From Candidatus Enterousia sp. (GTDB taxonomy: Bacteria; Pseudomonadota; Alphaproteobacteria; Rs-D84): DNA of 64,000 nt. The stretch covers positions 1,715-65,714 of the forward strand of contig JAZNXD010000023.1 of the NCBI GenBank assembly GCA_045593685.1, given 5' to 3'. A program made the translations under genes and the position numbers. Below are positions 42,601 through 58,469 of the stretch, piece after piece; the stretch's first letter is position 1, and the number at the start of each line of letters is the position of its first letter. The notes under the pieces are model-generated. The model saw nothing but the letters and a program-made list of their open reading frames with translations. It was not told the origin of the DNA and searched no databases.

Positions 42601-43857
42601 TTGAAACGCTATTTTGTTCGGTTTGTGGGTACGGTTTTATCTGCGTTAACGGCATTTTTGACAACGGATCGTGCCGAATCCGCGCCACATTTTGATTATG
42701 AAAAAACATTCACATTGGGCAATGATAAATATACAATCACCGTTTACACCGGTGCGGCATGGTACGTTGGTTGGGTAAACCTAAACCCAAAAACAAATTC
42801 CGATGCCACGGTGGATTCAAGATGGAACAATGTATGGCGCTCTTATAATGCAGAATATTATGATCAGCCAATGGTTATCGATTATAACGCCACATCGGGC
42901 AGTTCGTCATCTGGGTATACCGGGGTTTTGATATCCGAACGCAGATTCACACGACAAATGGACTCTTATAACCCGATAAAGTTTAGCCGTTATGTGGATT
43001 CCGATGCCGAGCAGTATTTGCTGTTTGATAAATGGGTCAATTGGATTATTGATATGCCATTACTGGCATATTCGCGCAGCAGCAGTACATTTACCAATGT
43101 TGGTTGTTGTCAATATACCCCGACCGGACACACCCCGGGCAGTTACGGCTTTTCATACAGTGGTGATGGCCGTGCTGCGGATGTATGCCCGTGTTTCTAT
43201 ACCACCGCGGACAAGGTTTATACCGGTAATTCTTGCGAACAATATCAAGGCAGGGGCAAAGATTTTTGTACCGGTACATCGGTAATGGGTGTTGGTGATG
43301 AAACCAGTTCTAATTGGCCCGCCGTGGTGCGCGACGTGTTCTTTTGCTATACATATTCGGGCTGCACCAGCAGTGACACAATGTATAAATCATTTGACCC
43401 TGTAAATTATACGGGGCTAAGTGGTTGTCACATGATACGTGTCCCAATGGTCGGTTTGGTTGGTGCATATGAAAATGATTTGCAATATAATGTCGATTAT
43501 GTTTTGTTCGCAAACGGCAGTGTTGGTTTTAACGTGTTTAACCCCGAATTGGTCGAAGAAATGGATTGCGAAGCGGGCTCTAACAATCAAAAGTTCATGA
43601 GTTGCGCATCCGGCGCCACGCCAAATCTTGGTTATTTAACGTACGGTGGAACGGATGGTTGCTATACATGCCCAACTGTTGCTGGGATTTCGGTTGGTGG
43701 TTATGCGCTAAGTAATACTTCCTTCTATGTGGACGAAGAAACCGCGGGTGTTGGTGCGTGTAAATTTATAAAGCCAACATCGTCGGACACCGGTGGTGTA
43801 TTTGAGTTGACCACGTACGCGGGCGCCAGCCAAACCTGTTATGGATTTGAATCATAA
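42601..43857 (+). CDS. secreted cysteine-containing hypothetical protein
   Basis: TTG start after GGGGGAAATT. N-terminal signal/anchor MKRYFVRFVGTVLSALTAFLTT. 418 aa, ~20 Cys, Tyr/Gly/Ser/Thr-rich. I recognise no family. Confidence 0.55.
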   Translation: MKRYFVRFVGTVLSALTAFLTTDRAESAPHFDYEKTFTLGNDKYTITVYTGAAWYVGWVNLNPKTNSDATVDSRWNNVWRSYNAEYYDQPMVIDYNATSGSSSSGYTGVLISERRFTRQMDSYNPIKFSRYVDSDAEQYLLFDKWVNWIIDMPLLAYSRSSSTFTNVGCCQYTPTGHTPGSYGFSYSGDGRAADVCPCFYTTADKVYTGNSCEQYQGRGKDFCTGTSVMGVGDETSSNWPAVVRDVFFCYTYSGCTSSDTMYKSFDPVNYTGLSGCHMIRVPMVGLVGAYENDLQYNVDYVLFANGSVGFNVFNPELVEEMDCEAGSNNQKFMSCASGATPNLGYLTYGGTDGCYTCPTVAGISVGGYALSNTSFYVDEETAGVGACKFIKPTSSDTGGVFELTTYAGASQTCYGFES

Positions 43858-45793: not shown

Positions 45794-45905
45794 TTGACTT
45801 TTTATTAAAAATATGATAGTATGCAAGACATAAACAGCACAAATTATATCCACATTTGGTGTGGAATTTTTTTTTACCCATGTTTCGACATGGGTATTTT
45901 TTTTA
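45794..45905 (+). promoter_or_regulatory. promoter followed by two tandem intrinsic terminators ahead of the lysis/structural genes
   Basis: TTGACT (45794-99), 17-nt spacer, TAGTAT (45817-22). Hairpin CCACA/TGTGG + T9 (45850-75). Hairpin ACCCATG/CATGGGT + T8 (45876-45904). The first gene starts at 45920. Confidence 0.5.
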
Positions 45906-45919
45906 CCTGTGGGGGGAAC

Positions 45920-46330
45920 ATGCAACTGACATTAATAAATAATCCGGATGCGTCCGCGGGATTGGCGTATCAAATTGCGCGCATTGTTTATGCGCAAACG
46001 GGCGCCCAAACCCTGACCGGTGTCGAAGCGATGACGTCTATGATAAAAAATCTGTCGGACAAATCCGGTATTGCGATTGAACAAATAATCGGGGATAAAA
46101 ATATCTTTGATGCGCTGTCACCGGATTCGCCACGTCATGAACGTATGCGCATATTTGCAAATGATCGTGCGTTTCAAATGTGCCTGCGGGTGGCGCGACG
46201 CATGTTGCGCGGTGGCCTGGGGGATACGTGTTATGGTGCGACATGTTTTCACTATGCGGATCAAATGCCGGATTGGGCACGTGCCCGTGGTTATATTGCG
46301 GACGTGGATGGCATGCTGTTTTATCTTTAA
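45920..46330 (+). CDS. cell-wall hydrolase (SleB/Hydrolase_2-like), putative endolysin
   Basis: The ATG at 45920 follows GGGGGGAAC. ...AYQIARIVYAQTGAQTLTGVEAMTSMIKN... and C-terminal GATCFHYADQMPDWA...DGMLFY resemble the Hydrolase_2 end motif (YFH...P.WA....G.H.FY). Confidence 0.5.
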   Translation: MQLTLINNPDASAGLAYQIARIVYAQTGAQTLTGVEAMTSMIKNLSDKSGIAIEQIIGDKNIFDALSPDSPRHERMRIFANDRAFQMCLRVARRMLRGGLGDTCYGATCFHYADQMPDWARARGYIADVDGMLFYL

Positions 46331-46342
46331 AGCGGGGGAAAT

Positions 46343-46540
46343 ATGACACGAATAATACGTGGTGGATATCTGTCGGGATATCGCACATACATAATTTCTG
46401 CGACTGGCATAATATCTGCGATTGGTGCCTATCTTGTTGGCGAAGCCGATTTGTTTGTCATGTTGCAATCTGTATTTACATTGGCGGGAATTTATTTCCT
46501 GCGTCGTTCAAATGAAACCAAAGGAAAAGAAAATGGATAA
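46343..46540 (+). CDS. holin-like small membrane protein
   Basis: 65 aa with two TM helices and a charged C-terminus (RRSNETKGKENG). Sits directly after the hydrolase gene. Confidence 0.45.
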   Translation: MTRIIRGGYLSGYRTYIISATGIISAIGAYLVGEADLFVMLQSVFTLAGIYFLRRSNETKGKENG

Positions 46541-47189
46541 CATCCCAGAAAAATTTTTAAACACAGACGGTACGGTTAATACATCTGCATTGATAAAATC
46601 GTATACGGAATTGGAAAAAAAGATGGGGACAATGGTAACTGTTCCAACCGCGCAATCGGATGCATCTGTCCAAGAAAAATTTAATCGTGCGATTGGTGTC
46701 CCACTTAGTCCATCAGAATATCCGACACATGATTTGTATGATGATGAAAATCTGCGTGAAAAATTTTTTCAAATTGGATTAACCAGTACCCAGGTTGAAA
46801 AAATTTATGACATTGCAAATGAATTTTTATCACCAATAATTTCAGATTTATTTTCTGTTCGTGATGAAACAAATGCAATAAATGAATTAAAAAATTTTTT
46901 TGGTGGCACAGAAAAAATGAACGAAGCATTAAACGCAATAAATGCATTTGGCCAGCGATTTTTACCACGCGATGCATTTGAAACTATGTGCGCCACACCC
47001 CAGGGAATCCAAGGCATCTACCGCATGATGCAATCGATGGAACCCGATGTAAAAACAGATACAAACGAAACAAAAAATTTATCAGATTCTGATTTGCGTC
47101 GCATGATGCGTGATCCAAAATATTGGCGTGATGGTGATGCCGAATATATTCGCAAAATAGAAAATGGATTTAAAAAATTATATTCATAA
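46533..47189 (+). CDS. phage scaffold/capsid-assembly-like protein
   Basis: The ATG at 46533 follows AAGGAAAAG. MDNIPEKFLNTDGTVNTSALIKSYTELEKKMG is typical of podovirus scaffold N-termini. Acidic and helical, positioned before the capsid gene. Confidence 0.45.
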   Translation: MDNIPEKFLNTDGTVNTSALIKSYTELEKKMGTMVTVPTAQSDASVQEKFNRAIGVPLSPSEYPTHDLYDDENLREKFFQIGLTSTQVEKIYDIANEFLSPIISDLFSVRDETNAINELKNFFGGTEKMNEALNAINAFGQRFLPRDAFETMCATPQGIQGIYRMMQSMEPDVKTDTNETKNLSDSDLRRMMRDPKYWRDGDAEYIRKIENGFKKLYS

Positions 47190-47301
47190 ATAAAAAAATA
47201 ACTTTTCTTCTTTACTAATATTCATATTTCATGATAAAATATACAGTAAGAACAAAACGGATTTGTTCTGTCCAAAAAACTTTAGTAAAAGGAGAGAAAG
47301 G

Positions 47302-47763
47302 ATGGGATTTTTATTTAAAAGATCTGCAAAAAAAGTAGAAGCAGCAAAACCGGTTGCAAAACCTGCTGCCAAGAAAGCACCTGCGAAAAAAGTAGCGGCA
47401 AAACCTGCTGCCAAGAAAGCACCTGCGAAAAAAGTAGCGGCAAAACCTGTTGCGAAGAAAGCACCTGCGAAAAAAGTGGCGGCTGCAAAACCTGTTGCAA
47501 AAAAAGCACCTGCGAAAAAAGTAGCGGCAAAACCTGTTGCGAAAAAAGCACCTGCGAAAAAAGTAGCGGCAAAACCTGTTGCAAAAAAAGCACCTGCGAA
47601 AAAAGTAGTGGCAAAACCCGTTGCGAAAAAAGCACCTGCGAAAAAAGTAGCGGCAAAACCAGTTGCAAAAAAAGCACCTGCGAAAAAAGTAGCGACCAAA
47701 CCGGTTGCAAAAAAGCCATGCGCCAAAAAGGCATGTGCAAAAAAAGTTTGCAAGAAAAAATAA
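47302..47763 (+). CDS. histone H1-like Lys/Ala-rich repeat protein
   Basis: The ATG at 47302 follows AAAGGAGAGAAAGG. About 8.5 copies of [14 protein letters not shown] and a Cys-containing [17 protein letters not shown] tail. Has its own promoter-like TTTACT-18-TAAAAT and its own terminator. Confidence 0.7.
47341..47718 (+). repeat. 42-bp in-frame tandem repeat (coding, ~9 copies)
   Basis: GCAAAACCTGTTGCGAAAAAAGCACCTGCGAAAAAAGTAGCG-type units. They generate long antisense ORF artefacts (47229..47753, 47315..47740). Confidence 0.9.
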
Positions 47764-47774
47764 TCTAATCTTTA

Positions 47775-47848
47775 CCCCGCGTTTGCGGGGTTTTATTTAA
47801 ATCAGTATCAGTCAGATAATCGTGCACAGTCTGACTGATATTTTTTTA
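47775..47848 (+). terminator. two consecutive intrinsic terminators between the H1-like and capsid genes
   Basis: CCCCGCGTTTGCGGGG + TTTT (47775-94). An 11-bp stem TATCAGTCAGA/TCTGACTGATA + T7 (47806-47). Confidence 0.6.
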
Positions 47849-47986: not shown

Positions 47987-48811
47987 ATGTCTGTTTCCAT
48001 AGATAATGTATTTGTGAAACATTTCGAAGCCGATGTTCACCTGGCGTATCAGCAAACTGGTACCAAACTGCGTTCGACCGTTCGCAGCAAATCGGGTGTT
48101 GTTGGTGCGTCTACTACTTTTCAAAAGGTTGGTCGTGGCACGGCCAGTACTAAATCACGTCATGGCATTGTACCCGTTATGAATTTGAATCATGAACCGG
48201 TTGAATGTTTGTTAATGGATTATTATGCCGGCGATTGGGTTGACAGTTTGGACGAATTAAAGACAAACATTGATGAACGCCGTGTTGTTGCATCAGCCGG
48301 TGCATATGCATTGGGACGAAAAACCGATGAATTGATTATCGCGGCAATGCAGGGCGCAACCGCAAATGTCGGTGATTATACATCGGGCCTGACCAAAGAT
48401 TTGGTTTTATCTGCACTGGAAATATTAAATACAAATGACGTACCCGATGATGGTCGTCGTTTTGCCGTTGTTGGCGTGCACCAGTGGAACGAACTGTTGT
48501 CGATGGATGAATTTGTGTCTGCCGATTATGTTTCTGATACCCCGTTGTTAAACGGATTCGAAGCACGCAAATGGTTGGGTATTACATGGGTATTGCACAA
48601 TGGTTTACCAATCAGTGAAAACAACCGTGATTGTTTTATCTATCATGCATCCAGTATCGGTCATGCCTGTGGCCAGGAAGTTAAAACAGATATTTCATGG
48701 CATGGTGAACGTGCTGCGCACTTTATCAGCAACAGCATGTCCCAGGGCGCGGTCCTGATTGATGGCGACGGCATTGTACGTGTCAAATGTTCTGACACGC
48801 AGTCTGCGTAA
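47987..48811 (+). CDS. phage major capsid protein
   Basis: 274 aa. The N-terminal pattern F.K.FEADVHLAYQQTGTKLRSTVR....G....FQKVG and the position after the scaffold are typical of small podovirus/P22-BPP-1-type capsid proteins, as far as I recall. Confidence 0.6.
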   Translation: MSVSIDNVFVKHFEADVHLAYQQTGTKLRSTVRSKSGVVGASTTFQKVGRGTASTKSRHGIVPVMNLNHEPVECLLMDYYAGDWVDSLDELKTNIDERRVVASAGAYALGRKTDELIIAAMQGATANVGDYTSGLTKDLVLSALEILNTNDVPDDGRRFAVVGVHQWNELLSMDEFVSADYVSDTPLLNGFEARKWLGITWVLHNGLPISENNRDCFIYHASSIGHACGQEVKTDISWHGERAAHFISNSMSQGAVLIDGDGIVRVKCSDTQSA

Positions 48812-49085: not shown

Positions 49086-49155
49086 TATACCAATCTTTAT
49101 AAATTGGCCGGTAATAAATGCCGGCCTGATTTTTACTAATTAAAAAAGGGACAAA

Positions 49156-49674
49156 ATGCTTACGAAAATAGACCTTTGTACCATGGCGTTATTAAAACTG
49201 GGCGAAGCGCCAATTCAATCTTTGTCTGATGATGTTGCATCTGCGAAATTATCGCGTACTTTATTTGACCCTGTTATGGATGCGTTAATCAGTATTCATC
49301 CATGGCGTTTTGCAACGGCCGAAATAAAATTGACCAAGAACACAGACGGCAATTTTTTGATACCGTCCAATGTGTTGCGTGTGCTAAGGGCATCTGGGCG
49401 TATTATTGGCGACCGCGTAATTTCTGATGCGCAAACCGTCACGATTACGGCGACTGTGCGTACGGAACCGGACAAGTATCCTTCGTATTTTATTTCGTTG
49501 GCGGCCACCCGCCTGGCTATGGAGTTTTGTATCCCGCTGTTGGGCGACCAGTCTGTATTTCGTATGTTGGTCGCGTTGTATGAAACAGAATTACAAACGG
49601 CCAAATTTATTGACAGCACGACATCCATATCCGGCGCCATAGAAGATTTTTCATTAATTAATTCGCGTTATTAA
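49156..49674 (+). CDS. phage head-tail adaptor / tail tubular protein A-like
   Basis: MLTKIDLCTMALLKLGEAPIQSLSDD...HPWRFA matches the N-terminal pattern (N.AL..LG...I.S......W.FA) I associate with podovirus adaptor/tubular-A proteins. Confidence 0.4.
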   Translation: MLTKIDLCTMALLKLGEAPIQSLSDDVASAKLSRTLFDPVMDALISIHPWRFATAEIKLTKNTDGNFLIPSNVLRVLRASGRIIGDRVISDAQTVTITATVRTEPDKYPSYFISLAATRLAMEFCIPLLGDQSVFRMLVALYETELQTAKFIDSTTSISGAIEDFSLINSRY

Positions 49675-49699: not shown

Positions 49700-51415
49700 A
49701 TGGCTGATTTTATTAAAACACAAAACTCTTTTGCAAATGGCGAAGTTGGATCGGAATTTTATGTGCACGATGGCATCAATGGCCTGTCCAAATTGGAAAA
49801 TATGGATGTGTTGTCGGGCGGTGGACTGACACGGCGTTCTGGTTTGCGAACGGTTTGCGCTTTGCCGGGCGCGGCGCGTTTAATATCGTTTTCTGTGTCC
49901 GATGGCGAAGAATATCTGATTGCGCTGACCGATGGGCATATGTACATATATCGTGACGATAAAAAGTACCAAGATTTAATAACGCCATGGGCATATGATG
50001 ATTTGTCGCATGTACAATACGCGCAGCGATTTGGGACGATGATATTTGTTCATCCCAATTTCATCCCCCAGGTTTTACGGAAATCCGGCGACAGATTTTA
50101 TATCTCGGATTTTTCTTTTTCGCGCAATGATGCGGACATGACTCTGCGGGTTCCGTTTGTTTCGTTTGATGATACCACAGATATCAGCATAACGGTTACA
50201 TCATGTGTCCTGGGTAACAACTATGCGACATTTACAACCAATCTAGATTTTTGGACACCGGATAATGTTAATGGCCGCCTTTTTTTATTGGAACGCCAAT
50301 GGGTCGTCCATGAATACATATCGCCGACCCAGATTATCGCATACACAAATGGCACATATTCCATCCCGTCCAGTCCCGTAACCGATTGGCGCGAATCCGC
50401 GTTCAGTGCGCGTCGTGGTTGGCCACGCAGTATCACCTTTCACCAGGACCGATTGGTCTTTGGCGGGTCGCGTGATTGGCCGTCTGGGATTTGGATGTCC
50501 CAGGTTGGGCGCCACAATAATTTTGACATTGGTACGGGCCTGGATGACGAAGCGATATTTGTGTCACTAATGTCGCAGCAGCGTCAACATATCTGCGCCA
50601 CGGTCAGCAGTGATAACCTGCAAATATTAACCAACGTCGGCGAATGGGCAATATCGAATTCGCCACTGACACCATCTGCGGTTGATGTGAAACAGCATAC
50701 TTCGGTCGGATCGTACGTTACGCGACATTTGCCGCCCCAAACCATAGAAGGTGCAACCATTTTTGTTGCCGCAAATGGTTGTGATATTCGCGAATTGGGG
50801 TTGGATGAACTGGGGGAAAATTATCGTGCAAATGATTTATCGGCTTTTTCCAAACATATTATGCACAATCCCATTGATATGGCATACAATTCTGCAACGC
50901 GAAAATTGTACGTGGTTCGTACCGATGGCATTATGGCGGTATTGAACCAAAATGCGGCATTGGGTATTTCGGCATGGGGAACGTACACGACGTCGGGACG
51001 TTTTATGTCGGTGTCTGTGTGCGATAAAAAAACGTACGTTGTCGTATCACGTGGTGATGATGTATTTTTGGAATACTTTGATGCATCCGCTTTGCGCGAT
51101 TGTGATAAATATGATTTTTCATTTATTGCATCGGGTATTCCGTTGCGGTCATCGGGGCACAGCGCCACACGCCTCCGCCTGCGTAAAATCAGTGCCCGTG
51201 TATTACAAACCAAATCACTGAATATAAATTCGCATCGTATTACATTACCAAATGAAATTTATACGATTGATTCCCCCGAATTCAGTGGGGACGTTTCCAT
51301 AAATCTGCTGGGGACCGTGCACGACTGTATGAATTCCCCGTGGACAATACATGGCACAGACCCGCAACCGGCAACGATTTTATCGGTAACAATGCACGGT
51401 TGGTATTCGGTATAA
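49700..51415 (+). CDS. phage nozzle / tail tubular protein B-like (stabilisation protein)
   Basis: 571 aa. N-terminal NSFANGEVGSEFYVHDGINGLSKLENMDVLSGGGLTRRSGLR pattern and position after the adaptor-like gene. Confidence 0.45.
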   Translation: MADFIKTQNSFANGEVGSEFYVHDGINGLSKLENMDVLSGGGLTRRSGLRTVCALPGAARLISFSVSDGEEYLIALTDGHMYIYRDDKKYQDLITPWAYDDLSHVQYAQRFGTMIFVHPNFIPQVLRKSGDRFYISDFSFSRNDADMTLRVPFVSFDDTTDISITVTSCVLGNNYATFTTNLDFWTPDNVNGRLFLLERQWVVHEYISPTQIIAYTNGTYSIPSSPVTDWRESAFSARRGWPRSITFHQDRLVFGGSRDWPSGIWMSQVGRHNNFDIGTGLDDEAIFVSLMSQQRQHICATVSSDNLQILTNVGEWAISNSPLTPSAVDVKQHTSVGSYVTRHLPPQTIEGATIFVAANGCDIRELGLDELGENYRANDLSAFSKHIMHNPIDMAYNSATRKLYVVRTDGIMAVLNQNAALGISAWGTYTTSGRFMSVSVCDKKTYVVVSRGDDVFLEYFDASALRDCDKYDFSFIASGIPLRSSGHSATRLRLRKISARVLQTKSLNINSHRITLPNEIYTIDSPEFSGDVSINLLGTVHDCMNSPWTIHGTDPQPATILSVTMHGWYSV

Positions 51416-51441: not shown

Positions 51442-51789
51442 ATGGGACAACTTGTATCAGATGTAACAGAAATACTGGATTATAAAGACGCCAAGAAACA
51501 GGCAAAATCACAACGCCAAGAAATCTTGGCCCAGATGGCATCAGACGAAAAAGAAAAAAAGAATTTGATAAAAAAAGCCCTGGCCACCCAGCGTGCAAAA
51601 TTTGGTGCATCTGGCATGTCGGGCACAGGCATTACCGAAGGCGCCGTGTTGCGTCGTCTAAAAAATGAAACATCCGCACCATATGAAAAAAAGCGTCGCG
51701 AAAATTTAACCAGGTTAAAACAGACCCGTGCATCCAGACCAAACCTGTTAAAATCGATTTTATCACGGTTTGACGATTTGGTTGGCTAA
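51442..51789 (+). CDS. phage internal/ejection-like small basic protein
   Basis: 115 aa, Lys/Arg-rich and helical. The call rests on position only. Confidence 0.35.
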   Translation: MGQLVSDVTEILDYKDAKKQAKSQRQEILAQMASDEKEKKNLIKKALATQRAKFGASGMSGTGITEGAVLRRLKNETSAPYEKKRRENLTRLKQTRASRPNLLKSILSRFDDLVG

Positions 51790-51809: not shown

Positions 51810-52010
51810 ATGTACAAAATATCTTATACCGCCGAAATTGATTGTACCCACGCGGTTATCCAAGACAAACTGTCCGGCGGGGCGGTTTTGGGATTATATC
51901 GCAATCTGTTGGGGGTATTGGAAAACGCATTGCCAAAATTAATAAATGATTATGGCTATATAACCGAAAGCGCACCAAACGAAAATGCTGATGACTATGG
52001 GGTATTATGA
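51810..52010 (+). CDS. small hypothetical phage protein upstream of terL
   Basis: 66-aa ORF overlapping the start of the TerL ORF. It sits where a small terminase subunit would be, but I see no motif support. Confidence 0.3.
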   Translation: MYKISYTAEIDCTHAVIQDKLSGGAVLGLYRNLLGVLENALPKLINDYGYITESAPNENADDYGVL

Positions 52011-52596
52011 ATTTTTGGACCAATGGAATCGGATTTTGGGGTACAAGACCCCCGCGCATCACAGGCGTATTATGGAATTTCTGGTTGACGTTTGGACAAA
52101 TTCGCCACGCCGTGGTTTGTTGATGGCATTTCGACATTCGGGCAAGTCCACGGTTGTTGGGATTTTCGTTGCCTGTGTTTTATATATGCACCCGGAAACC
52201 CGAATTTTGGTATTGTCGGCGGAAAATGGTTTGTCGGGTCGTATGGTGGCGCACGTTCGGCATATCCTTGAAAATCATCCGTGGTGTGCCGATTTGGTGC
52301 CCCAGAATAAAAAGGAATGGGCCGCCGGTCGCATCACGATAAATCGCCCCATTGGTATTCGCGAACCATCGGTCATATGCCAGGGGATTCATGGTAACAT
52401 AACGGGTATGCGTGCGGATTTAATTATTTGCGACGATGTCGAAGTGCCAAATACCATCAACACCCCGCAAAAGCGTGAAAACCTGCGTGAAAGATTACGG
52501 GAATTGGATTTTATCCTGTCACCAAATGGGGCCATGATTTACATTGGAACGCCCCATACGCACGACACGATATATCGCACATCGGACACGGACTAG
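51985..52596 (+). CDS. terL: terminase large subunit, N-terminal ATPase half (gene interrupted)
   Basis: Walker A LLMAFRHSGKSTVVG, Walker B ADLIICDDVE, then IGTPHTHDTIY, then a stop after 6 more codons. Confidence 0.75.
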   Translation: MLMTMGYYEFLDQWNRILGYKTPAHHRRIMEFLVDVWTNSPRRGLLMAFRHSGKSTVVGIFVACVLYMHPETRILVLSAENGLSGRMVAHVRHILENHPWCADLVPQNKKEWAAGRITINRPIGIREPSVICQGIHGNITGMRADLIICDDVEVPNTINTPQKRENLRERLRELDFILSPNGAMIYIGTPHTHDTIYRTSDTD

Positions 52597-53231
52597 TTAA
52601 TACTGCTGACAAACGTGCGCAGTTTTTCCAACAATTCTGTCCCGGCATCGCCGAACATCGGCAAATATGTTTCGTATTCCGGCATATCGGCCTGAACCTG
52701 GGCCCGCGCCCGCTCTGACAGCGGACTAGATATAATCTCGTTTGCGGTGGCCCACAGTCTGTATGCATCATATGTTTGCTTTACAATGCGCCATTTGTCC
52801 AATAACTGGGGTCGTGCCCCCAGTGCCGATTGAATGGCAACGGGCCACTCTTCGCCAAATTTTCGTACAATCGGCAAAGAAACGAACATATCCAATCCAT
52901 GTTGATCCGGTGTAAAAGAATCCAGGCCTTCCTGTAATTCACGCCATTGTGCATCGGTCAGGGCAATCGAAGTCATGGCATCACTCATCATGCCACCATA
53001 CGGTAACAGTTCACGCTCAATGGAATCCATTGGGGTTTTGCCGCTGCGTAAATTTTCAATATGTTGAATCAGGTTTTTACCCGCCGGCATATCACGCAAT
53101 TCGGCAATTACATCATCGGTCGCATCCTGGACAAGAATTGGGTTAATCGCCAACCATCCGCCGACTATAACATGTTCTTGGCGATACAGGTTTAACAGTC
53201 TTTGTGCCGTTGTTCTGATTTTTGCCTTCAT
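52593..53231 (-). CDS. hypothetical protein (last gene of the dnaB-repressor block)
   Basis: 212-aa ORF. Its stop overlaps the TerL-N stop within CTAG (52593-52596). I recognise no family. Confidence 0.45.
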   Translation of the reverse strand: MKAKIRTTAQRLLNLYRQEHVIVGGWLAINPILVQDATDDVIAELRDMPAGKNLIQHIENLRSGKTPMDSIERELLPYGGMMSDAMTSIALTDAQWRELQEGLDSFTPDQHGLDMFVSLPIVRKFGEEWPVAIQSALGARPQLLDKWRIVKQTYDAYRLWATANEIISSPLSERARAQVQADMPEYETYLPMFGDAGTELLEKLRTFVSSIN

Positions 53232-53257
53232 GGTAATCTCTCTCCTGTGTGTGGTGT

Positions 53258-54271
53258 TTATTCCATAACAATCATAACAACTTTATGCATTGTCTGTCCG
53301 TTAATCTTTTCGTCGGGACCGGAAATTTGACCATAAATTTTTCCCTTGGAATCCTGGCGAACACTGACGATTTGTGCGCTGACCGATGTTTCAGAATCCA
53401 ACGCATCAAAATCCGCATCAATGCATACTGCCATGTCACCCGGTTTGGCGGGGGTTAACGCATCCGCAAAAACATAAGATTTTTCTGGGATAAATCCGCC
53501 CAGTCTTTTTGTGTTTGGCACAACTGCGTATATGCCCGCGCGTCCTTCCAATGTCATTGGCGACACAATCATTGTTTTGTCGGACTTTTTAAATGCGATT
53601 GATTTTCCCGACGGCGTACCAAATACAGGCACCAATTTTTTACGTGCACTGTCATACAACTTGGCACCATACAGACCGCCGTGCATATCAATACTGGACA
53701 TAGGGTTCCCCGGCACCAAAACAGATTTTACGCGTTCTTTGACCTTGCTGATATGTTTGTTTAATTCGCCCGATTTATACAGGTTTGCAATTTTATCAAA
53801 CAAATCTTCGGCCCCCATCGCAAAGGATTTTGCCAATGGTTCAATTTCATTTTTATAGATTTCGCGTTGACCAACTTCGATTTTATGATACACCGACAAT
53901 GTCATCCCGGCTTCTTTTGCGGCCTGGGCGATTGTTTTTCCGGACTGCTGACGAATTTTGCGCAGACCACTGCCGAATACTTTCAGTCCGCTGTTTTCAT
54001 TGTCGTTCAGGCGACGTTTGATTTCATTTTGCCATTGCCCCGCAACATCATCAGATTCTTTGATGAATATATCGGATAATTTACACCCCAGGATATTACA
54101 AATATTCAATAACTGTTTTTGGTTCAGGCGTCGCACCCCTTTTTCAATTTTTGAAACCGCGGACAGCGACAAACCCGCCTGGCGTGCCAGTTCGGTCATT
54201 TTCATACCGTTTGCCAAACGTATGTTACGGATATTATTTGGAAAAATAATTTCTTCTTGGGCCATGTGCAA
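53258..54271 (-). CDS. tandem XRE-family HTH regulator with C-terminal beta-rich (LexA/S24-like, apparently non-catalytic) domain
   Basis: Two HTH_3-like modules (IRNIRLANGMKMTELARQAGLSLSAVSKIEKG; LRKIRQQSGKTIAQAAKEAGMTLSVYHKIEVG). The C-terminal ~130 aa has no GDSM/Ser-Lys dyad that I can see. Confidence 0.65.
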   Translation of the reverse strand: MHMAQEEIIFPNNIRNIRLANGMKMTELARQAGLSLSAVSKIEKGVRRLNQKQLLNICNILGCKLSDIFIKESDDVAGQWQNEIKRRLNDNENSGLKVFGSGLRKIRQQSGKTIAQAAKEAGMTLSVYHKIEVGQREIYKNEIEPLAKSFAMGAEDLFDKIANLYKSGELNKHISKVKERVKSVLVPGNPMSSIDMHGGLYGAKLYDSARKKLVPVFGTPSGKSIAFKKSDKTMIVSPMTLEGRAGIYAVVPNTKRLGGFIPEKSYVFADALTPAKPGDMAVCIDADFDALDSETSVSAQIVSVRQDSKGKIYGQISGPDEKINGQTMHKVVMIVME

Positions 54272-54342
54272 ACTCCTAAATAACTATTTCTTGACAAAAT
54301 AATAGTCAATTTAGGAACGCGGTGCAAGGAAATAATTATAAA

Positions 54343-55908
54343 TTACAACGGCATATCGTCCGGGATATCGTCTGGGTTAATCGCGGTTGGTGCAAAATCG
54401 GCATCGTTCCCCAGGCTGGCCGCAGAAATCGTTGGTGCGGGCTGGGCGAATTCATTGTCGCCACGCGATTCAAACTCGTCCAAGTTATCGAACAGACTGT
54501 AATCACCAAAGAACGCGGTTCGTACGGTTTCCGGGCGTCCATGGCGGTTTTTTCCGATGATGATATCAGCTTTGCCCTTGGCACGTTCATATCGTTTTTG
54601 CCATGATTCGACCATTGCATTATTTGTTGTATTTGATATACGTTCGGATGGATCACGGTTTTGCAGATAGTATTCTTCACGATACGTAAACATAACGATG
54701 TCGGCGTCTTGTTCAATGGAACCCGATTCACGCAAATCCGACAGCATTGGTCGTTTATCATCACGTGATTCCACACTACGTGACAACTGGGACAGGGCAA
54801 TAACCGGCACATCCAATTCCTTGGCCAGCATCTTTAACCCACGGGTGATTTCGGAAATTTCCTGGACGCGGTTATCGCTATGTTTGCCCCCCGGGGACGT
54901 CATCAACTGTAAATAGTCAATTACAATCAGTGCGATTCCACCATGCTTGCGCGACAGGCGTCGTGCACGTGTTCGCATCATTGGGACCGACATGCCCGGT
55001 GTATCATCGATAAACAGTGGCACCTTGCCGATTGCGGCGGAATATTGTGACATTTTCAAGAAATCTTCATCCGTCAGGTTTCCTTCGCGCATTGCGGATG
55101 CCGGTACCTTGGACTGGGAAGACAGCACACGTGCCGCCAACTGGGATGCCGACATTTCAAGGCTGAAAAACACAACTGCGCCCTTGTAATTTTTATTGGC
55201 GCGACCATATGCGATTGCGTTTGCCGCATTAAAGGCCATATTCATCGCCAGTGTTGTTTTTCCCATCGCGGGTCGTCCCGCAATGATAATCAGGTCGGAA
55301 TGATGCAACCCACTGATTGATTTATCCAATGCGTTCAACCCGGTGGTCAATCCCGACAACTGACCGTCTGCCTTGTACGCAATTTCCGCTTCGGCCAGGG
55401 CGCTTTGCAACGCGGTTGAAATTGATGTGATTTCGCGTTCCGAAGACCCCGTTGTTGCCATATCGAACAATTTTTGTTCCGCGATTTCTATTTGTCGCGT
55501 CACAGGATTGTCCAGGTCTTCTATGAACGCCTTGTCTGTAATTTCCTGGCCCAGTGCAATCAGGTCGCGCCGCAATGCGTGTTCGTATACGATGCGTCCA
55601 TATTGTTCAACATTAACAACCGTTGCGCCCGCGCCAGATAACTGGGTTAAATAGTCCACGCCGCCCACGGACTCCAAAACCCCTTGTTGGTCCAGATAGT
55701 TCTTGGCGGTAATAATATCAAACGGGATGCCTGCGGCAAATTGACGTTCGGCCAGTTTATATATTTCCTGGTGCGCGGGGTGTGAAAAATGCGTGTGACT
55801 CAGGAATTCTCCCACCCGTTCCAACGCGCGATTATTCATCAACACCGCCGCCAATACGGCCTGTTCGGCTTCTAGATTTGTCGGTAACGTTTTGGGGGTA
55901 AAATCCAT
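54343..55908 (-). CDS. dnaB: replicative DNA helicase DnaB with ~45-aa acidic C-terminal extension
   Basis: LPTNLEAEQAVLAAVLMNN, Walker A IIAGRPAMGKTTLAMN, LIVIDYLQLM, VIALSQLSR. Ends ...NPDDIPDDMPL. Confidence 0.92.
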   Translation of the reverse strand: MDFTPKTLPTNLEAEQAVLAAVLMNNRALERVGEFLSHTHFSHPAHQEIYKLAERQFAAGIPFDIITAKNYLDQQGVLESVGGVDYLTQLSGAGATVVNVEQYGRIVYEHALRRDLIALGQEITDKAFIEDLDNPVTRQIEIAEQKLFDMATTGSSEREITSISTALQSALAEAEIAYKADGQLSGLTTGLNALDKSISGLHHSDLIIIAGRPAMGKTTLAMNMAFNAANAIAYGRANKNYKGAVVFFSLEMSASQLAARVLSSQSKVPASAMREGNLTDEDFLKMSQYSAAIGKVPLFIDDTPGMSVPMMRTRARRLSRKHGGIALIVIDYLQLMTSPGGKHSDNRVQEISEITRGLKMLAKELDVPVIALSQLSRSVESRDDKRPMLSDLRESGSIEQDADIVMFTYREEYYLQNRDPSERISNTTNNAMVESWQKRYERAKGKADIIIGKNRHGRPETVRTAFFGDYSLFDNLDEFESRGDNEFAQPAPTISAASLGNDADFAPTAINPDDIPDDMPL

Positions 55909-56776
55909 GTCAAATTCCTTTACTTCTATGCCAATGGTATATGAAAAAAATGCTTTTTCAACGCCTTTTTTGCGCGGATATAAATTGTTGAAAATTCCGA
56001 TAGTTAACGCGTGTGGCGCGCCCGCATGGCCCGAATTATATCCGTTGGATAAAATCGATGAATTGCGCCAAATTGTGGGCGCGCGCCATTTTATGTCGCA
56101 AATGATGTTGGAATTTGTCCCAACGGAACGTGCGCGATTGGATCCGGGCGGATTGCGTTTTTATGACGACCAATTCGATACGCATACTGCGCGCATAGGC
56201 GCACATCAGATTACGGGCGTCACGCTATATTGGGATCCGTCCACCGGGCGACGTAAACGTGACGGCAGTGCCTGTGTCCTGTTGTATCGTGATGATAAAA
56301 ACCGGAACGTTTTTATTCACGATATTTTATATCTGACCGTATCTGACAGCGAACAGTTCCCATTATCGTGCCAATGTGACATGGTATTGAATTTTATGCA
56401 TACACGTCATTTAAATCGTATAACGATTGAAACAAATGGGATTGGTGGCGGTTTGCCCGAAATTATGCGCGATTGCGCCACCCGCACCGGTCAGAACATA
56501 TATGTAAACCGCGTTCAAAATACGAAATCAAAATCAGAACGCATACTAGATGCCATAGAACCCCTGTTAAGCACCGGTCGCCTGCATGCCCACACGCACG
56601 TGCGAAACACGCCGCTGTTGGCGGAAATGTTGGGGTGGACGCCGGTTGGCGCGTATGGTACGCACGATGATGGTCTGGATGCGGTGGCGGGCGCGATTGC
56701 CCAACCCCCGATTATCGTACGTCCATCGGGTCACGTGATAAAAACCTTTACCGCGAACACAAACTTTTCTGTTTAA
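55892..56776 (+). CDS. terL: terminase large subunit, C-terminal nuclease half (gene interrupted; homology probably begins near 55970)
   Basis: ...AWPELYPLDKIDELRQIVGARHFMSQMMLEF, VTLYWDPSTGRRKRDGSACVLL, ITIETNGIGGG and THDDGLDAVAGAI resemble RNaseH-like TerL nuclease motifs. The first ~25 codons of the ORF overlap the dnaB start/RBS antisense and are probably not TerL. Confidence 0.7.
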   Translation: MGVKSMSNSFTSMPMVYEKNAFSTPFLRGYKLLKIPIVNACGAPAWPELYPLDKIDELRQIVGARHFMSQMMLEFVPTERARLDPGGLRFYDDQFDTHTARIGAHQITGVTLYWDPSTGRRKRDGSACVLLYRDDKNRNVFIHDILYLTVSDSEQFPLSCQCDMVLNFMHTRHLNRITIETNGIGGGLPEIMRDCATRTGQNIYVNRVQNTKSKSERILDAIEPLLSTGRLHAHTHVRNTPLLAEMLGWTPVGAYGTHDDGLDAVAGAIAQPPIIVRPSGHVIKTFTANTNFSV

Positions 56777-56797: not shown

Positions 56798-58036
56798 ATG
56801 CAAAAAAATTTACAAAATCTGTATAAACGCGCCCTGGATATGCGTGGTCCCTGGATTGCCCGTTGGGATGCGGCGCGACGGTATGCAATGCCGGCCGCCG
56901 ACGATGATGCGGCGACATTGTTTGATGCAACCGCGATGGATGCATCAGATAACCTGGCGGCATCGATTTATACATTGTTAACGCCACCTGAATCCATGTG
57001 GTTGCAACTGGTTGGTGAAAGTGACCTGTCCCAAAATGCAGATTATGCGACGGCCATTTTGCGTGCAAACCTGAACGATTCAAATTTTTACACCACGATA
57101 CATCAGTGCTATATGGATCTGGTTGTATTGGGAACTGCGTGTTTATTTATGGCTGAATCTCCGATTGGGGCATCATCTGCATTTACATTTACCGCAATTC
57201 CGATGTCGGACATTGCCGTATTACCAAATGCGGTATTTCATACGACATCAATGTCCGCGCGTGAAGTCATGGATAAGTATCCCACGTGGACGGCGCCCTC
57301 AAATCTGCGTGATACGATTAAGCAAGACCCCGAAACGCCATTAAAATTGGTACAAAGTCTGGTTGATAATGAATTTACCGCATGGTTGGACGTTGGTGGT
57401 GATATTGAAAATAATATTGTTGCAACGGGAACATTTGAAACCAATCCGTATATAATATTCCGTTGGTCTGTGGCCAGTGGTGAATTATACGGTCGCGGTC
57501 CGGTTTTGCGCGCATTGCCCGATATCAAGACCGCAAACAAAGTCGTTGAATTGGTGCTGAAAAACGCGACGATTGCCGTTTCGGGTATATGGATGGCGGA
57601 TGACGATGGCGTAATTAATTTGCAGAACATTAATCTGACCCCCGGCGCAATTATACCCAAGGCGGTTGGTTCTTCGGGGCTGACCCCATTGACCAGTGGC
57701 GCCAACTTTGACGTGTCCCAGTTAATATTAAAAGACCTGCGCGAACGTATTCGTCATGCATTGTTGGCAGACCGGCTGGGGTTGTTGTCTGACAAAGAAA
57801 TGACGGCCACAGAAATAGTTGCCCGTAATGCCGATATGATGCGGATTTTGGGGGCGACGTACGGGCGGCTGTTGCATGAATTTATCCGTCCACTGTGCGA
57901 TCGTGGGTTACAGATTTTGTCGCGTCGTGGTGTAATCGAACCTATTCGTTTAAACGGGGATGCCGAATTAAAATACATTGCACCTATTGCACAAATGACG
58001 GCGATGGACGGTATGCTTGGGGGGACTGAATTATGA
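56798..58036 (+). CDS. phage portal (head-to-tail connector) protein
   Basis: 412 aa. N-terminal LYKRALDMRGPWIARWDAARRYAMP...LFDATAMDASDNLAASIYTLLTPPESMWLQL fits the podovirus connector family pattern. Directly follows terL. Confidence 0.65.
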   Translation: MQKNLQNLYKRALDMRGPWIARWDAARRYAMPAADDDAATLFDATAMDASDNLAASIYTLLTPPESMWLQLVGESDLSQNADYATAILRANLNDSNFYTTIHQCYMDLVVLGTACLFMAESPIGASSAFTFTAIPMSDIAVLPNAVFHTTSMSAREVMDKYPTWTAPSNLRDTIKQDPETPLKLVQSLVDNEFTAWLDVGGDIENNIVATGTFETNPYIIFRWSVASGELYGRGPVLRALPDIKTANKVVELVLKNATIAVSGIWMADDDGVINLQNINLTPGAIIPKAVGSSGLTPLTSGANFDVSQLILKDLRERIRHALLADRLGLLSDKEMTATEIVARNADMMRILGATYGRLLHEFIRPLCDRGLQILSRRGVIEPIRLNGDAELKYIAPIAQMTAMDGMLGGTEL

Positions 58037-58233
58037 CAACGCCGGAACATGATTATGCCCGTTGTTTTTCGACGCCTGCGGGCATACGGGTATTACAGCA
58101 TATGAAATCAATAACCCATGGGCGAACATTTGGCCCAAACGCAACCGATAACGAATTGCGCTGGGCGGAATCCCAGCGCGCATTTGTTCGTCACATCGAA
58201 ACCATGATTTCGCGGGGCAGGGGGGACGGATAA
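58033..58233 (+). CDS. small Bbp19-like phage protein
   Basis: 66 aa. ...FSTPAGIRVLQHMKS...ELRWAESQRAFVRHIETMI resembles the small conserved protein found after the portal in BPP-1-like podoviruses (from memory). Confidence 0.4.
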   Translation: MTTPEHDYARCFSTPAGIRVLQHMKSITHGRTFGPNATDNELRWAESQRAFVRHIETMISRGRGDG

Positions 58234-58469
58234 TGAAAACATTGGATTTTTTACGCAACAGTTGGTTTTTAATAGTTTTTATCGGCGGTCTGATTTATTG
58301 GGCCGCCCGCCAGGATTTATCCGTTGCCGAACATGAACACTTTGACAGTCGTATAACATCCCTTGAAAATCGGACCACGATATTAGAGACGGGCATCGGT
58401 CAAATTCAAATAAAAATCGACGACATCAAAGAAGATTTAACCCTGATTAAGGGCGCGGTTATAAAATAA
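58233..58469 (+). CDS. small membrane-anchored coiled-coil protein (spanin/holin-like by architecture)
   Basis: 78 aa. N-terminal TM WFLIVFIGGLIYWA followed by a coiled coil. Confidence 0.35.
   Translation: MKTLDFLRNSWFLIVFIGGLIYWAARQDLSVAEHEHFDSRITSLENRTTILETGIGQIQIKIDDIKEDLTLIKGAVIK

Follow-up and report, generated by a model that had tools for sequence, protein, structure and literature searches.

The large terminase subunits (TerL) of T7-type phages, exemplified by T7 gp19, the PhiV-1 TerL (PDB 8dgc), the structure 4bij, and the NCBIfam family NF033889, combine ATPase motifs with an RNase-H-like nuclease bearing conserved acidic residues, and canonically carry both activities on one polypeptide. 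Phage-derived packaging genes are also found in the gene transfer agents (GTAs) of alphaproteobacteria (RcGTA-type; viriforms, PMC9662315), which are chromosomal head, tail, and packaging clusters without replication or integration genes, inherited vertically under purifying selection. Here we describe a locus that resembles both of these systems and departs from each of them. It lies in a 64,000-nucleotide stretch of a Candidatus Enterousia sp. genome (GenBank assembly GCA_045593685.1, contig JAZNXD010000023.1, positions 1,715 to 65,714 of the forward strand; hereinafter the window, numbered from its first letter). Its TerL belongs to the same family as the T7-type enzymes and its neighbors are T7-like too (portal, scaffold, capsid, and tail tubes A and B); however, unlike the T7-type terminase, it is made up of two polypeptides whose genes stand 3.3 kb apart and enclose host genes on the opposite strand, and its identity to cultured phages is at most about 36%. 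The cluster shares with the alphaproteobacterial GTAs the features listed above, but RcGTA is derived from a headful-packaging phage (PMC7947584), whereas the Enterousia cluster appears to be derived from a T7-like podovirus. It further differs from RcGTA in its split TerL, in the nesting of essential host genes, and in having no CtrA-box signal. We rate it as a domesticated GTA-type phage cluster with a two-gene terminase and nested essential genes. A literature search turned up no earlier account of this cluster, of a T7-type TerL in two pieces, or of such a gene enclosing dnaB or ftsZ.

An earlier note on this DNA had proposed that two open reading frames (ORFs) on the plus strand are the halves of one terL gene, separated by three genes on the minus strand. 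The genes in question are as follows:

51985..52596, plus strand: TerL-N, the ATPase core of a T7-type large terminase, 203 aa (NF033889, PDB alignment)
52593..53231, minus strand: u212, a conserved, all-helical protein of 212 aa with no family match
53258..54271, minus strand: double helix-turn-helix (HTH) regulator of the XRE/Cro-CI type, 337 aa, with two HTH_3 stretches and an uncharacterised C-terminal half
54343..55908, minus strand: dnaB, coding for a cellular-type replicative DNA helicase of 521 aa (NF006606, TIGR00665, Pfam)
55907..56776, plus strand: TerL-C, the RNase-H-like nuclease half (NF033889, AlphaFold2, Foldseek)

The ORFs are present at the coordinates given in that note, and the proposal is borne out by family models and by intact relatives alike. 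TerL-N covers positions 3-191 of the 500-position model NF033889 (termin_lrg_T7; 226 bits, cutoff 150), and the TerL-C ORF covers positions 224-500 (99 bits, on its own below the cutoff of 150). The PHROGs profile phrog_38 is likewise matched by both, at profile positions 273-459 (TerL-N) and 483-701 (TerL-C). This consecutive and non-overlapping coverage indicates that TerL-N and TerL-C are parts of one family model, in the right order, and the alignment of residue ~208 of intact relatives (477-503 aa) with residue ~23 of TerL-C indicates that no residues were lost at the split. TerL-N possesses the Walker A motif (FRHSGKST), the Walker B motif with the catalytic glutamate (LIICDDVE), and motif III (GTPHT, within GTPHTHDTIY); residues 52-212 of the solved T7-type TerLs 8dgc and 4bij align with it, and all three motifs fall in register. 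It ends 14 residues past the GTP of motif III. Intact relatives display the order GTPHTxxTIY, a variable loop of 4-17 residues, and PFLxGYxxLxIP...W PE...F.SQMML, and in TerL-C a short leader precedes the PFLRGYKLLKIP segment, after which come lid-like helices and the RNase-H-like nuclease. The motifs of this nuclease, YWDPS, ETNG, and HDDGLDA, are invariant across the C-half alignments at identities down to 29%, and the invariant acidic residues are D110, E175, D254, D255, and D258. Sequence-only mapping of TerL-C onto solved structures had no success with either a single sequence or a profile; fold search alone worked. An AlphaFold2 (AF2) model of TerL-C (predicted local distance difference test score, pLDDT, 82) places the nuclease at about residues 84-265 and two helices at 47-66, and Foldseek searches with it recovered the TerL of the T7-like phage PhiV-1 as the best match (8dgc_E, E = 4e-11, 280 aligned columns), with further matches to the nuclease domains of P22, SPP1, human cytomegalovirus, and Sf6. 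Residues 1-28 are modeled with low confidence, which, in a half modeled alone, is consistent with a need for the N-half.

The cut is inside the ATPase module, right after motif III and ~80 residues ahead of the nuclease fold, with nothing missing. The earlier note had correctly placed the dnaB start at 55908, but its location of that start at the TerL interdomain linker does not hold, and TerL-C begins at a conserved ATG at 55907 rather than at the TTG at 55892 that had been proposed. By analogy with solved TerLs, the C-half presumably holds a core strand and the lid subdomain of the ATPase, so that both products would have to reassemble to form an active ATPase.

A scan of one genome per species with TerL-N returned at least 573 matching stretches, of which the best 80 loci were examined. 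All 80 come from Ca. Enterousia or from metagenome-assembled genomes (MAGs) of gut Alphaproteobacteria, with identities of 74-89% and matches that end near residue 200; correspondingly, the best 120 protein matches to TerL-N are all 187-220 aa long. The hosts belong to the order Rs-D84, with genomes of ~0.75-1.0 Mb (PMC12306168, a paper without mention of phage genes). Searches of these loci by tblastn with all window proteins revealed an identical gene order as far as the contigs reach: a plus-strand series of lipB, hydrolase, scaffold, capsid, a small ORF, tubes A and B, a 115-aa protein (u115), a fiber-like ORF, and TerL-N; a minus-strand series of u212, the XRE regulator, and DnaB; and, again on the plus strand, TerL-C, portal, and two small ORFs. 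Order and orientation are canonical in 72/72 informative loci, all from different species, the other 8 of the 80 stopping at a contig end, and over these 72 the TerL-C ATG lies 3291-3367 nt past the end of TerL-N. With two ORFs ~3.3 kb apart in every one of them, in place of both activities on one polypeptide, the Enterousia TerL is a split variant and not a canonical member of the T7-type large terminases.

Most of the related records are short-read MAGs, which might point to an artifact of assembly or binning with a chimeric join at 52.59 or 55.9 kb. However, more than 70 assemblies made independently by many laboratories, and from many hosts, have the same junctions, and one of them is a circular metaFlye genome of 958,618 bp built from long reads (OZ007020.1). 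The recurrence of the junctions throughout the informative loci and in this closed genome excludes an assembly error, so that we give an artifact practically no credence, and it equally means that the arrangement is not a chance pattern.

TerL-N is an uninterrupted ORF in 80/80 loci, with a median ratio of nonsynonymous to synonymous substitution rates (dN/dS) of 0.086, and TerL-C in 69/69, with a median of 0.156. The genes between them have medians of 0.058 (DnaB), 0.073 (XRE), and 0.176 (u212), the structural genes 0.062 (capsid), 0.065 (portal), 0.153 (tube A), and 0.165 (tube B), and the host gene lipB 0.155; u115 is stop-free in 76 loci with a dN/dS of 0.164. All these ratios are rough, as synonymous sites are near saturation (dS about 1.2-1.7), and the lack of stop codons over such divergence is robust. 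The pattern of substitution, similar in the two halves to that in dnaB, capsid, and portal, shows both predicted products to be kept by purifying selection as separate ORFs, in agreement with the suggestion of the earlier note that the two TerL domains persist as separate polypeptides. TerL-C is the faster-evolving of the two (51-80% identity versus 74-89% for TerL-N).

The same note had also spoken of a broken phage packaging gene, or of a module insertion in a prophage. An account of this kind, in which the terL of a prophage in decay was put out of action not long ago by an insertion or rearrangement, leaving pseudogene fragments between which dnaB merely landed, would fit with the opposite-strand interruption, the tight junctions, and the lack of phage replication genes nearby. 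It is hardly credible when set against an arrangement common to all 72 species, stop-free orthologs of both halves with low dN/dS, intact catalytic motifs, and a conserved start codon; moreover, the loci represent different GTDB species with dS > 1 and not one clone. What is seen is a chromosomal, non-replicative, vertically inherited cluster whose arrangement and spacing are fixed over the clade.

An exhaustive search of representatives with TerL-C recovered many 270-300-aa proteins with 35-45% identity and a common start point, and a TerL-C alignment search yielded 160 more distant loci that we classified. In 145 of these terL is intact (Micavibrio, Azospirillum, Rhodospirillales, and IMG/VR contigs), and the genes follow the T7 order portal-scaffold-capsid-tubeA-tubeB-...-TerL-hydrolase. 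These elements (L092-L240) furnish the closest intact homologs of TerL, capsid, tube, and portal; they differ from the Enterousia cluster (type A) in having a single terL ORF of ~480-505 aa, extra fiber and internal virion genes, and no host gene inside. For instance, in the intact relative L164, tube B and TerL are separated by genes for a tail fiber and for a virion protein of 748 aa, both missing in Enterousia. A second split arrangement with the same break point (type B) was found in 11 gut or termite MAGs, where TerL-N, 0-4 kb of variable genes, FtsZ, portal, and TerL-C lie on one strand. The FtsZ is genuine (PF00091, 1e-45, plus FtsZ_C; e.g., L084:6698-8410 and L091:7050-8465, and L081-L091 generally), and an XRE-u212 pair is situated downstream. 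In a third arrangement (type C), represented by an Alphaproteobacteria MAG (SZUA-605; L157:9100-10846), TerL-N (202 aa) and TerL-C are separated at the same break point by just ~270 nt. A relative with the two domains encoded by separate adjacent genes, which the earlier note had named as evidence that would tell against its picture of an interrupted gene, thus does exist.

A neighbor-joining tree of the concatenated TerL (67 sequences, 479 columns) separates all split forms from 49 intact ones with a bootstrap of 100/100. This bipartition, together with the identical break point, favors one ancient split followed by different gene captures. It is very likely, going by the gene orders, that the split predates the arrival of dnaB, since L157 has adjacent halves at the same break point and type B has ftsZ and portal. 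As a separate observation on L157, a host ABC-F gene directly follows the halves, there is no portal within 20 kb, and ftsZ is found ~9 kb downstream.

Genes interrupted by excisable elements are exemplified by the skin element in sigK of Bacillus subtilis and the heterocyst nifD element, and as in these, the parts of the Enterousia terL are separated by several kb of unrelated genes. A programmed rearrangement, whereby the 3.3-kb block is excised in producer cells and one terL frame is restored, would account for the constant length of the block and could give a role to u212, which is without known function. Yet, unlike skin and nifD, the Enterousia terL has no recombinase or flanking repeats: scans of the dnaB block against Pfam, PHROGs, and NCBIfam returned no recombinase or transposase family, and no direct or inverted repeats beyond short, chance-level pairs were found across 52300-56200. 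TerL-C also has a conserved ATG and a Shine-Dalgarno-like GGGGG of its own, L157 with its adjacent halves has nothing to excise, and excision would remove dnaB; we regard such a mechanism as highly improbable. We also rejected an intron or intein, on account of the opposite-strand genes, the lack of repeats, the start codon of TerL-C, and the adjacent halves of L157; family scans and the repeat search here agree with the earlier note, which had seen no intron, intein, recombinase, or target duplication. Insertion of a mobile element (insertion sequence, transposon, or island) was likewise rejected, there being no recombinase or transposase match, no junction repeats, and a distribution in 72/72 loci that is not patchy.

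Turning to the genes between the halves, dnaB is, by its family scores, of the cellular type: it scores 613.7 bits with NF006606 (cutoff 540) and 506.9 with TIGR00665 (cutoff 385), matches both Pfam domains (PF00772, DnaB; PF03796, DnaB_C), and remains below the cutoff of the phage_DnaB model TIGR03600. DnaB is 75-96% identical among species, and the genome size of ~0.75-1.0 Mb (PMC12306168) along with its dN/dS of 0.058 suggests that this may be the only copy in the genome, and an essential one. The XRE regulator (72-93% identity among species) likely starts at the ATG at 54265. The third gene, u212, has no match in Pfam, PHROGs, or NCBIfam and has 1268 homologs, every one hypothetical; its AF2 model (pLDDT 74, all-helical) retrieved no PDB match with E < 1 in Foldseek. 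It is always linked to the XRE gene, a linkage kept in type B too. In the type B locus L084 (14878-16693), a u212 homolog is followed by a 328-aa paralog that also matches the Enterousia u212 region, and the two look like a tandem duplication.

The block meets the terL halves at tight junctions. The stops of TerL-N and u212 overlap in one CTAG (52593-52596), as had been noted earlier, and overlap or abut in all loci; at the other end, the dnaB ATG (minus strand, 55908-55906) and the TerL-C ATG (plus strand, 55907-55909) overlap in one CATG. The latter is kept in 72/73 loci, and divergent members start TerL-C exactly there. Two regulatory stretches are predicted within the block and at its edge:

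54280..54313, minus strand: XRE promoter TTGACT-17-TAGTTA with an overlapping dyad, TTGAC-N9-GTCAA, between dnaB and the XRE gene (near-invariant in a 76-species alignment)
55909..55981, minus strand: dnaB ribosome-binding site, 5′ untranslated region (UTR), and promoter candidate, inside the first ~25 terL-C codons

The dnaB promoter candidate recovered by a promoter scan, TTGAAA-16-TACCAT (55961 to 55934, minus strand), consists of near-invariant nucleotides, and an AAGGA precedes the dnaB ATG. Over terL-C codons 7-30 (55910-55981), the normalised synonymous entropy drops to 0.05-0.23 against a gene mean of 0.72, which implies that the dnaB promoter and 5′ UTR are embedded in terL-C; synonymous-site conservation in this manner shows the predicted dnaB promoter region to lie within terL-C codons. 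The TTGAC-N9-GTCAA dyad probably serves as the operator through which the double-HTH protein regulates its own gene. The possibility that this protein directly represses the structural genes was rejected, as the dyad has 4 matches in the window versus 2.55 expected and 0 at the cluster promoter.

From the back-to-back starts of dnaB and terL-C and the stop-on-stop arrangement of TerL-N and u212, it follows that terL-C/portal transcripts would have to originate on the strand antisense to the dnaB block or else traverse it. In the excludon-type divergent loci of Listeria, divergent genes have overlapping 5′ regions and the transcripts of one gene are antisense to the other. The Enterousia locus bears some likeness to this in its DNA sequence: dnaB and terL-C have overlapping start codons, and terL-C contains a conserved dnaB promoter-like element. 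Unlike the excludon, it pairs an essential replication gene with a packaging gene. An antagonism between the expression of the particle-completion genes (terL-C/portal) and that of dnaB with its accompanying regulator could be imagined on this basis, speculative as it is.

The remainder of the T7-like cluster surrounds these genes:

45794..45822, plus strand: sigma-70-like promoter candidate TTGACT-17-TAGTAT ahead of the structural genes (consensus scan)
45821..46330, plus strand: cell-wall hydrolase-like protein, first gene of the cluster (weak Pfam Hydrolase_2 and phrog_938 endolysin; same position in Enterousia loci)
46422..47189, plus strand: T7-type scaffold (capsid assembly) protein (PF05396 Phage_T7_Capsid, 2.4e-8; syntenic in all loci)
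47987..48811, plus strand: major capsid protein (PF19821, 1.2e-70; phrog_3437, 6e-71; 81-95% identity across species)
49106..49126, plus strand: putative terminator-like hairpin just past the capsid region
49156..49674, plus strand: tail tubular protein A homolog (PF17212, phrog_394)
49700..51415, plus strand: tail tubular protein B (nozzle) homolog (phrog_376, 4.5e-79)
51442..51789, plus strand: u115, conserved 115-aa protein (no family match in Pfam, PHROGs, or NCBIfam)
51810..52010, plus strand: 66-aa remnant resembling the T7 fiber N domain (in-frame internal deletion relative to L003 9430-10020)
56798..58036, plus strand: portal (head-to-tail connector) protein (PF12236, 1.7e-82)
58033..58469, plus strand: two small conserved ORFs (66 and 78 aa), end of the cluster (syntenic in 66 loci)

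The hairpin at 49106-49126, a strong one, is placed like the T7 terminator after gene 10 (capsid). Of the two terminal ORFs, the 66-aa one has a weak match to phrog_5977 and the 78-aa one an N-terminal hydrophobic segment. The fiber-like protein is about 183 aa long in most relatives, and its type B homolog shows a weak match to PF03906. Host genes flank the cluster (priA, lipB, and glycosyltransferases, and farther out nrdD, a gyrA/parC-type topoisomerase gene, and gapA), and Pfam, PHROGs, and NCBIfam scans detected no polymerase, primase, or integrase in it. The cluster has in common with GTAs its phage-derived structural and packaging genes without replication or integration modules, at a fixed locus and under purifying selection across the host clade. 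Because the portal and both TerL parts remain under selection, a GTA-like particle is the most economical reading.

Taken together, we consider it probable that terL was split in ancient times, that its halves have been retained in a domesticated T7-like cluster, that host genes were captured later, and that the halves make up a two-subunit terminase of a GTA-like particle. Under this model, a chromosomal, vertically inherited, domesticated T7-like cluster of a gut alphaproteobacterium of the Ca. Enterousia type with a reduced genome would most likely serve as a GTA-like DNA-packaging particle. Its terL would have been cut into two genes at the variable loop after motif III in the common ancestor of at least three lineages, leaving the Walker A, Walker B, and motif III core in TerL-N and the following strand segment, the lid-like helices, and the nuclease in TerL-C; translated separately, the two most probably reassemble non-covalently as a two-subunit terminase. 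The gap between the two genes would later have taken up host genes: dnaB, the double-HTH regulator, and u212, in reversed orientation, in Enterousia, and ftsZ with portal in the sister lineage. By this route, dnaB and terL-C would have come to start back to back on the one CATG.

Several points weigh against this model. The tree is a neighbor-joining one only and unrooted, and the appearance of a single origin could be due to long-branch attraction between domesticated copies that evolve fast; the dN/dS values are subject to the near-saturation mentioned above. No conserved terL-C promoter was found, and the synonymous constraint on dnaB codons 1-54 is within the gene-wide range. CtrA control was also tried and rejected, the window having 2 matches to TTAA-N7-TTAA versus 3.1 expected and hence no enrichment; with the XRE operator dyad absent from the structural genes and CtrA boxes not enriched, no regulatory link emerges. 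As for the particle, no small terminase was identified, no internal core proteins or full tail fiber were found in the cluster, and the fiber-like gene is internally deleted in the window genome and absent in several more divergent species. Finally, T7-type TerLs normally package in a sequence-specific manner, which is less suited to random packaging of host DNA (PMC7947584).

Some of these points would sit well with a separate exaptation of the TerL pieces, for example of TerL-C as a stand-alone nuclease and of TerL-N as an ATPase with another partner, while the capsid genes could form a DNA-free compartment or another non-transfer structure: internal core proteins and fibers are missing, as is an identifiable small terminase, TerL-C changes faster than TerL-N (dN/dS 0.156 versus 0.086), and the halves are in different transcription contexts. 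Against it, types A and B invariably keep the full set of portal, scaffold, capsid, tube, and both TerL parts, with TerL-C next to portal, and TerL-C retains a segment of the ATPase module (the PFLxGY strand and lid helices with invariant W, F, Q, and M) that would be useless without the N-half. We deem this alternative unlikely. Another possibility is that a helper mobilises the cluster as an active satellite or a defective phage, the split and the nested host genes then being cargo carried by a mobile island. IMG/VR classes related clusters as viral and a CI-like regulator is present, but these IMG/VR relatives belong to the intact-terL type, the chromosomal position beside lipB and priA is fixed across species, no integrase, attachment-site-like repeats, or replication genes are present, and the divergence is comparable with that of neighboring host genes such as lipB, all of which makes such an element very unlikely.

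The model of a two-subunit terminase in a GTA-like particle could be carried further. In this extended form, which we offer as a tentative and rather doubtful conjecture, the whole order of genome-reduced gut Alphaproteobacteria and its sisters would keep a hitherto undescribed T7-derived GTA-like particle with a two-subunit terminase, between whose genes essential cell-cycle genes were captured; particle completion and proliferation would then be antagonistic and production terminal and all-or-none, or else the nested genes would anchor the cluster against deletion. If the less far-reaching model is true, the locus would offer a natural, long-lived packaging motor cut inside its ATPase module and under selection, and thereby a system for studying the assembly of terminase subunits. 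It would likewise mean that a particle derived from a T7-like podovirus is conserved over hundreds of uncultured gut species with very small genomes, lineages in which gene exchange could offset genome decay. The gene order itself poses a puzzle, with dnaB or ftsZ nested between terminase genes and dnaB overlapping terL-C in both start-codon and promoter space. For annotation, such loci are not to be treated as broken prophages, nor their short "terminase" ORFs as pseudogenes.

A few further features of these loci were recorded. In one MAG the whole cluster, its dnaB block included, occurs twice, as diverged copies on separate contigs (L002 and L004; JAZTWT010000002.1 and JAZTWT010000011.1), most likely because the bin mixes two Enterousia species. 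A few species contain an extra 0.6-0.9 kb on the TerL-C side of portal or on its far side, ahead of the small ORFs (L005:14790-15372, L065:4973-5847, L010:14314-15242). In the window, the gap between scaffold and capsid holds a Lys-rich, low-complexity ORF (47263-47763) with a weak HC2 histone-like match, poor similarity to related loci, and long ORFs on both strands; it is followed by a strong terminator-like hairpin at 47774-47791. Lastly, a 418-aa ORF between priA and lipB (42601-43857) has no family match and no counterpart in related loci, marking a variable spot at the left edge of the conserved neighborhood of the cluster.

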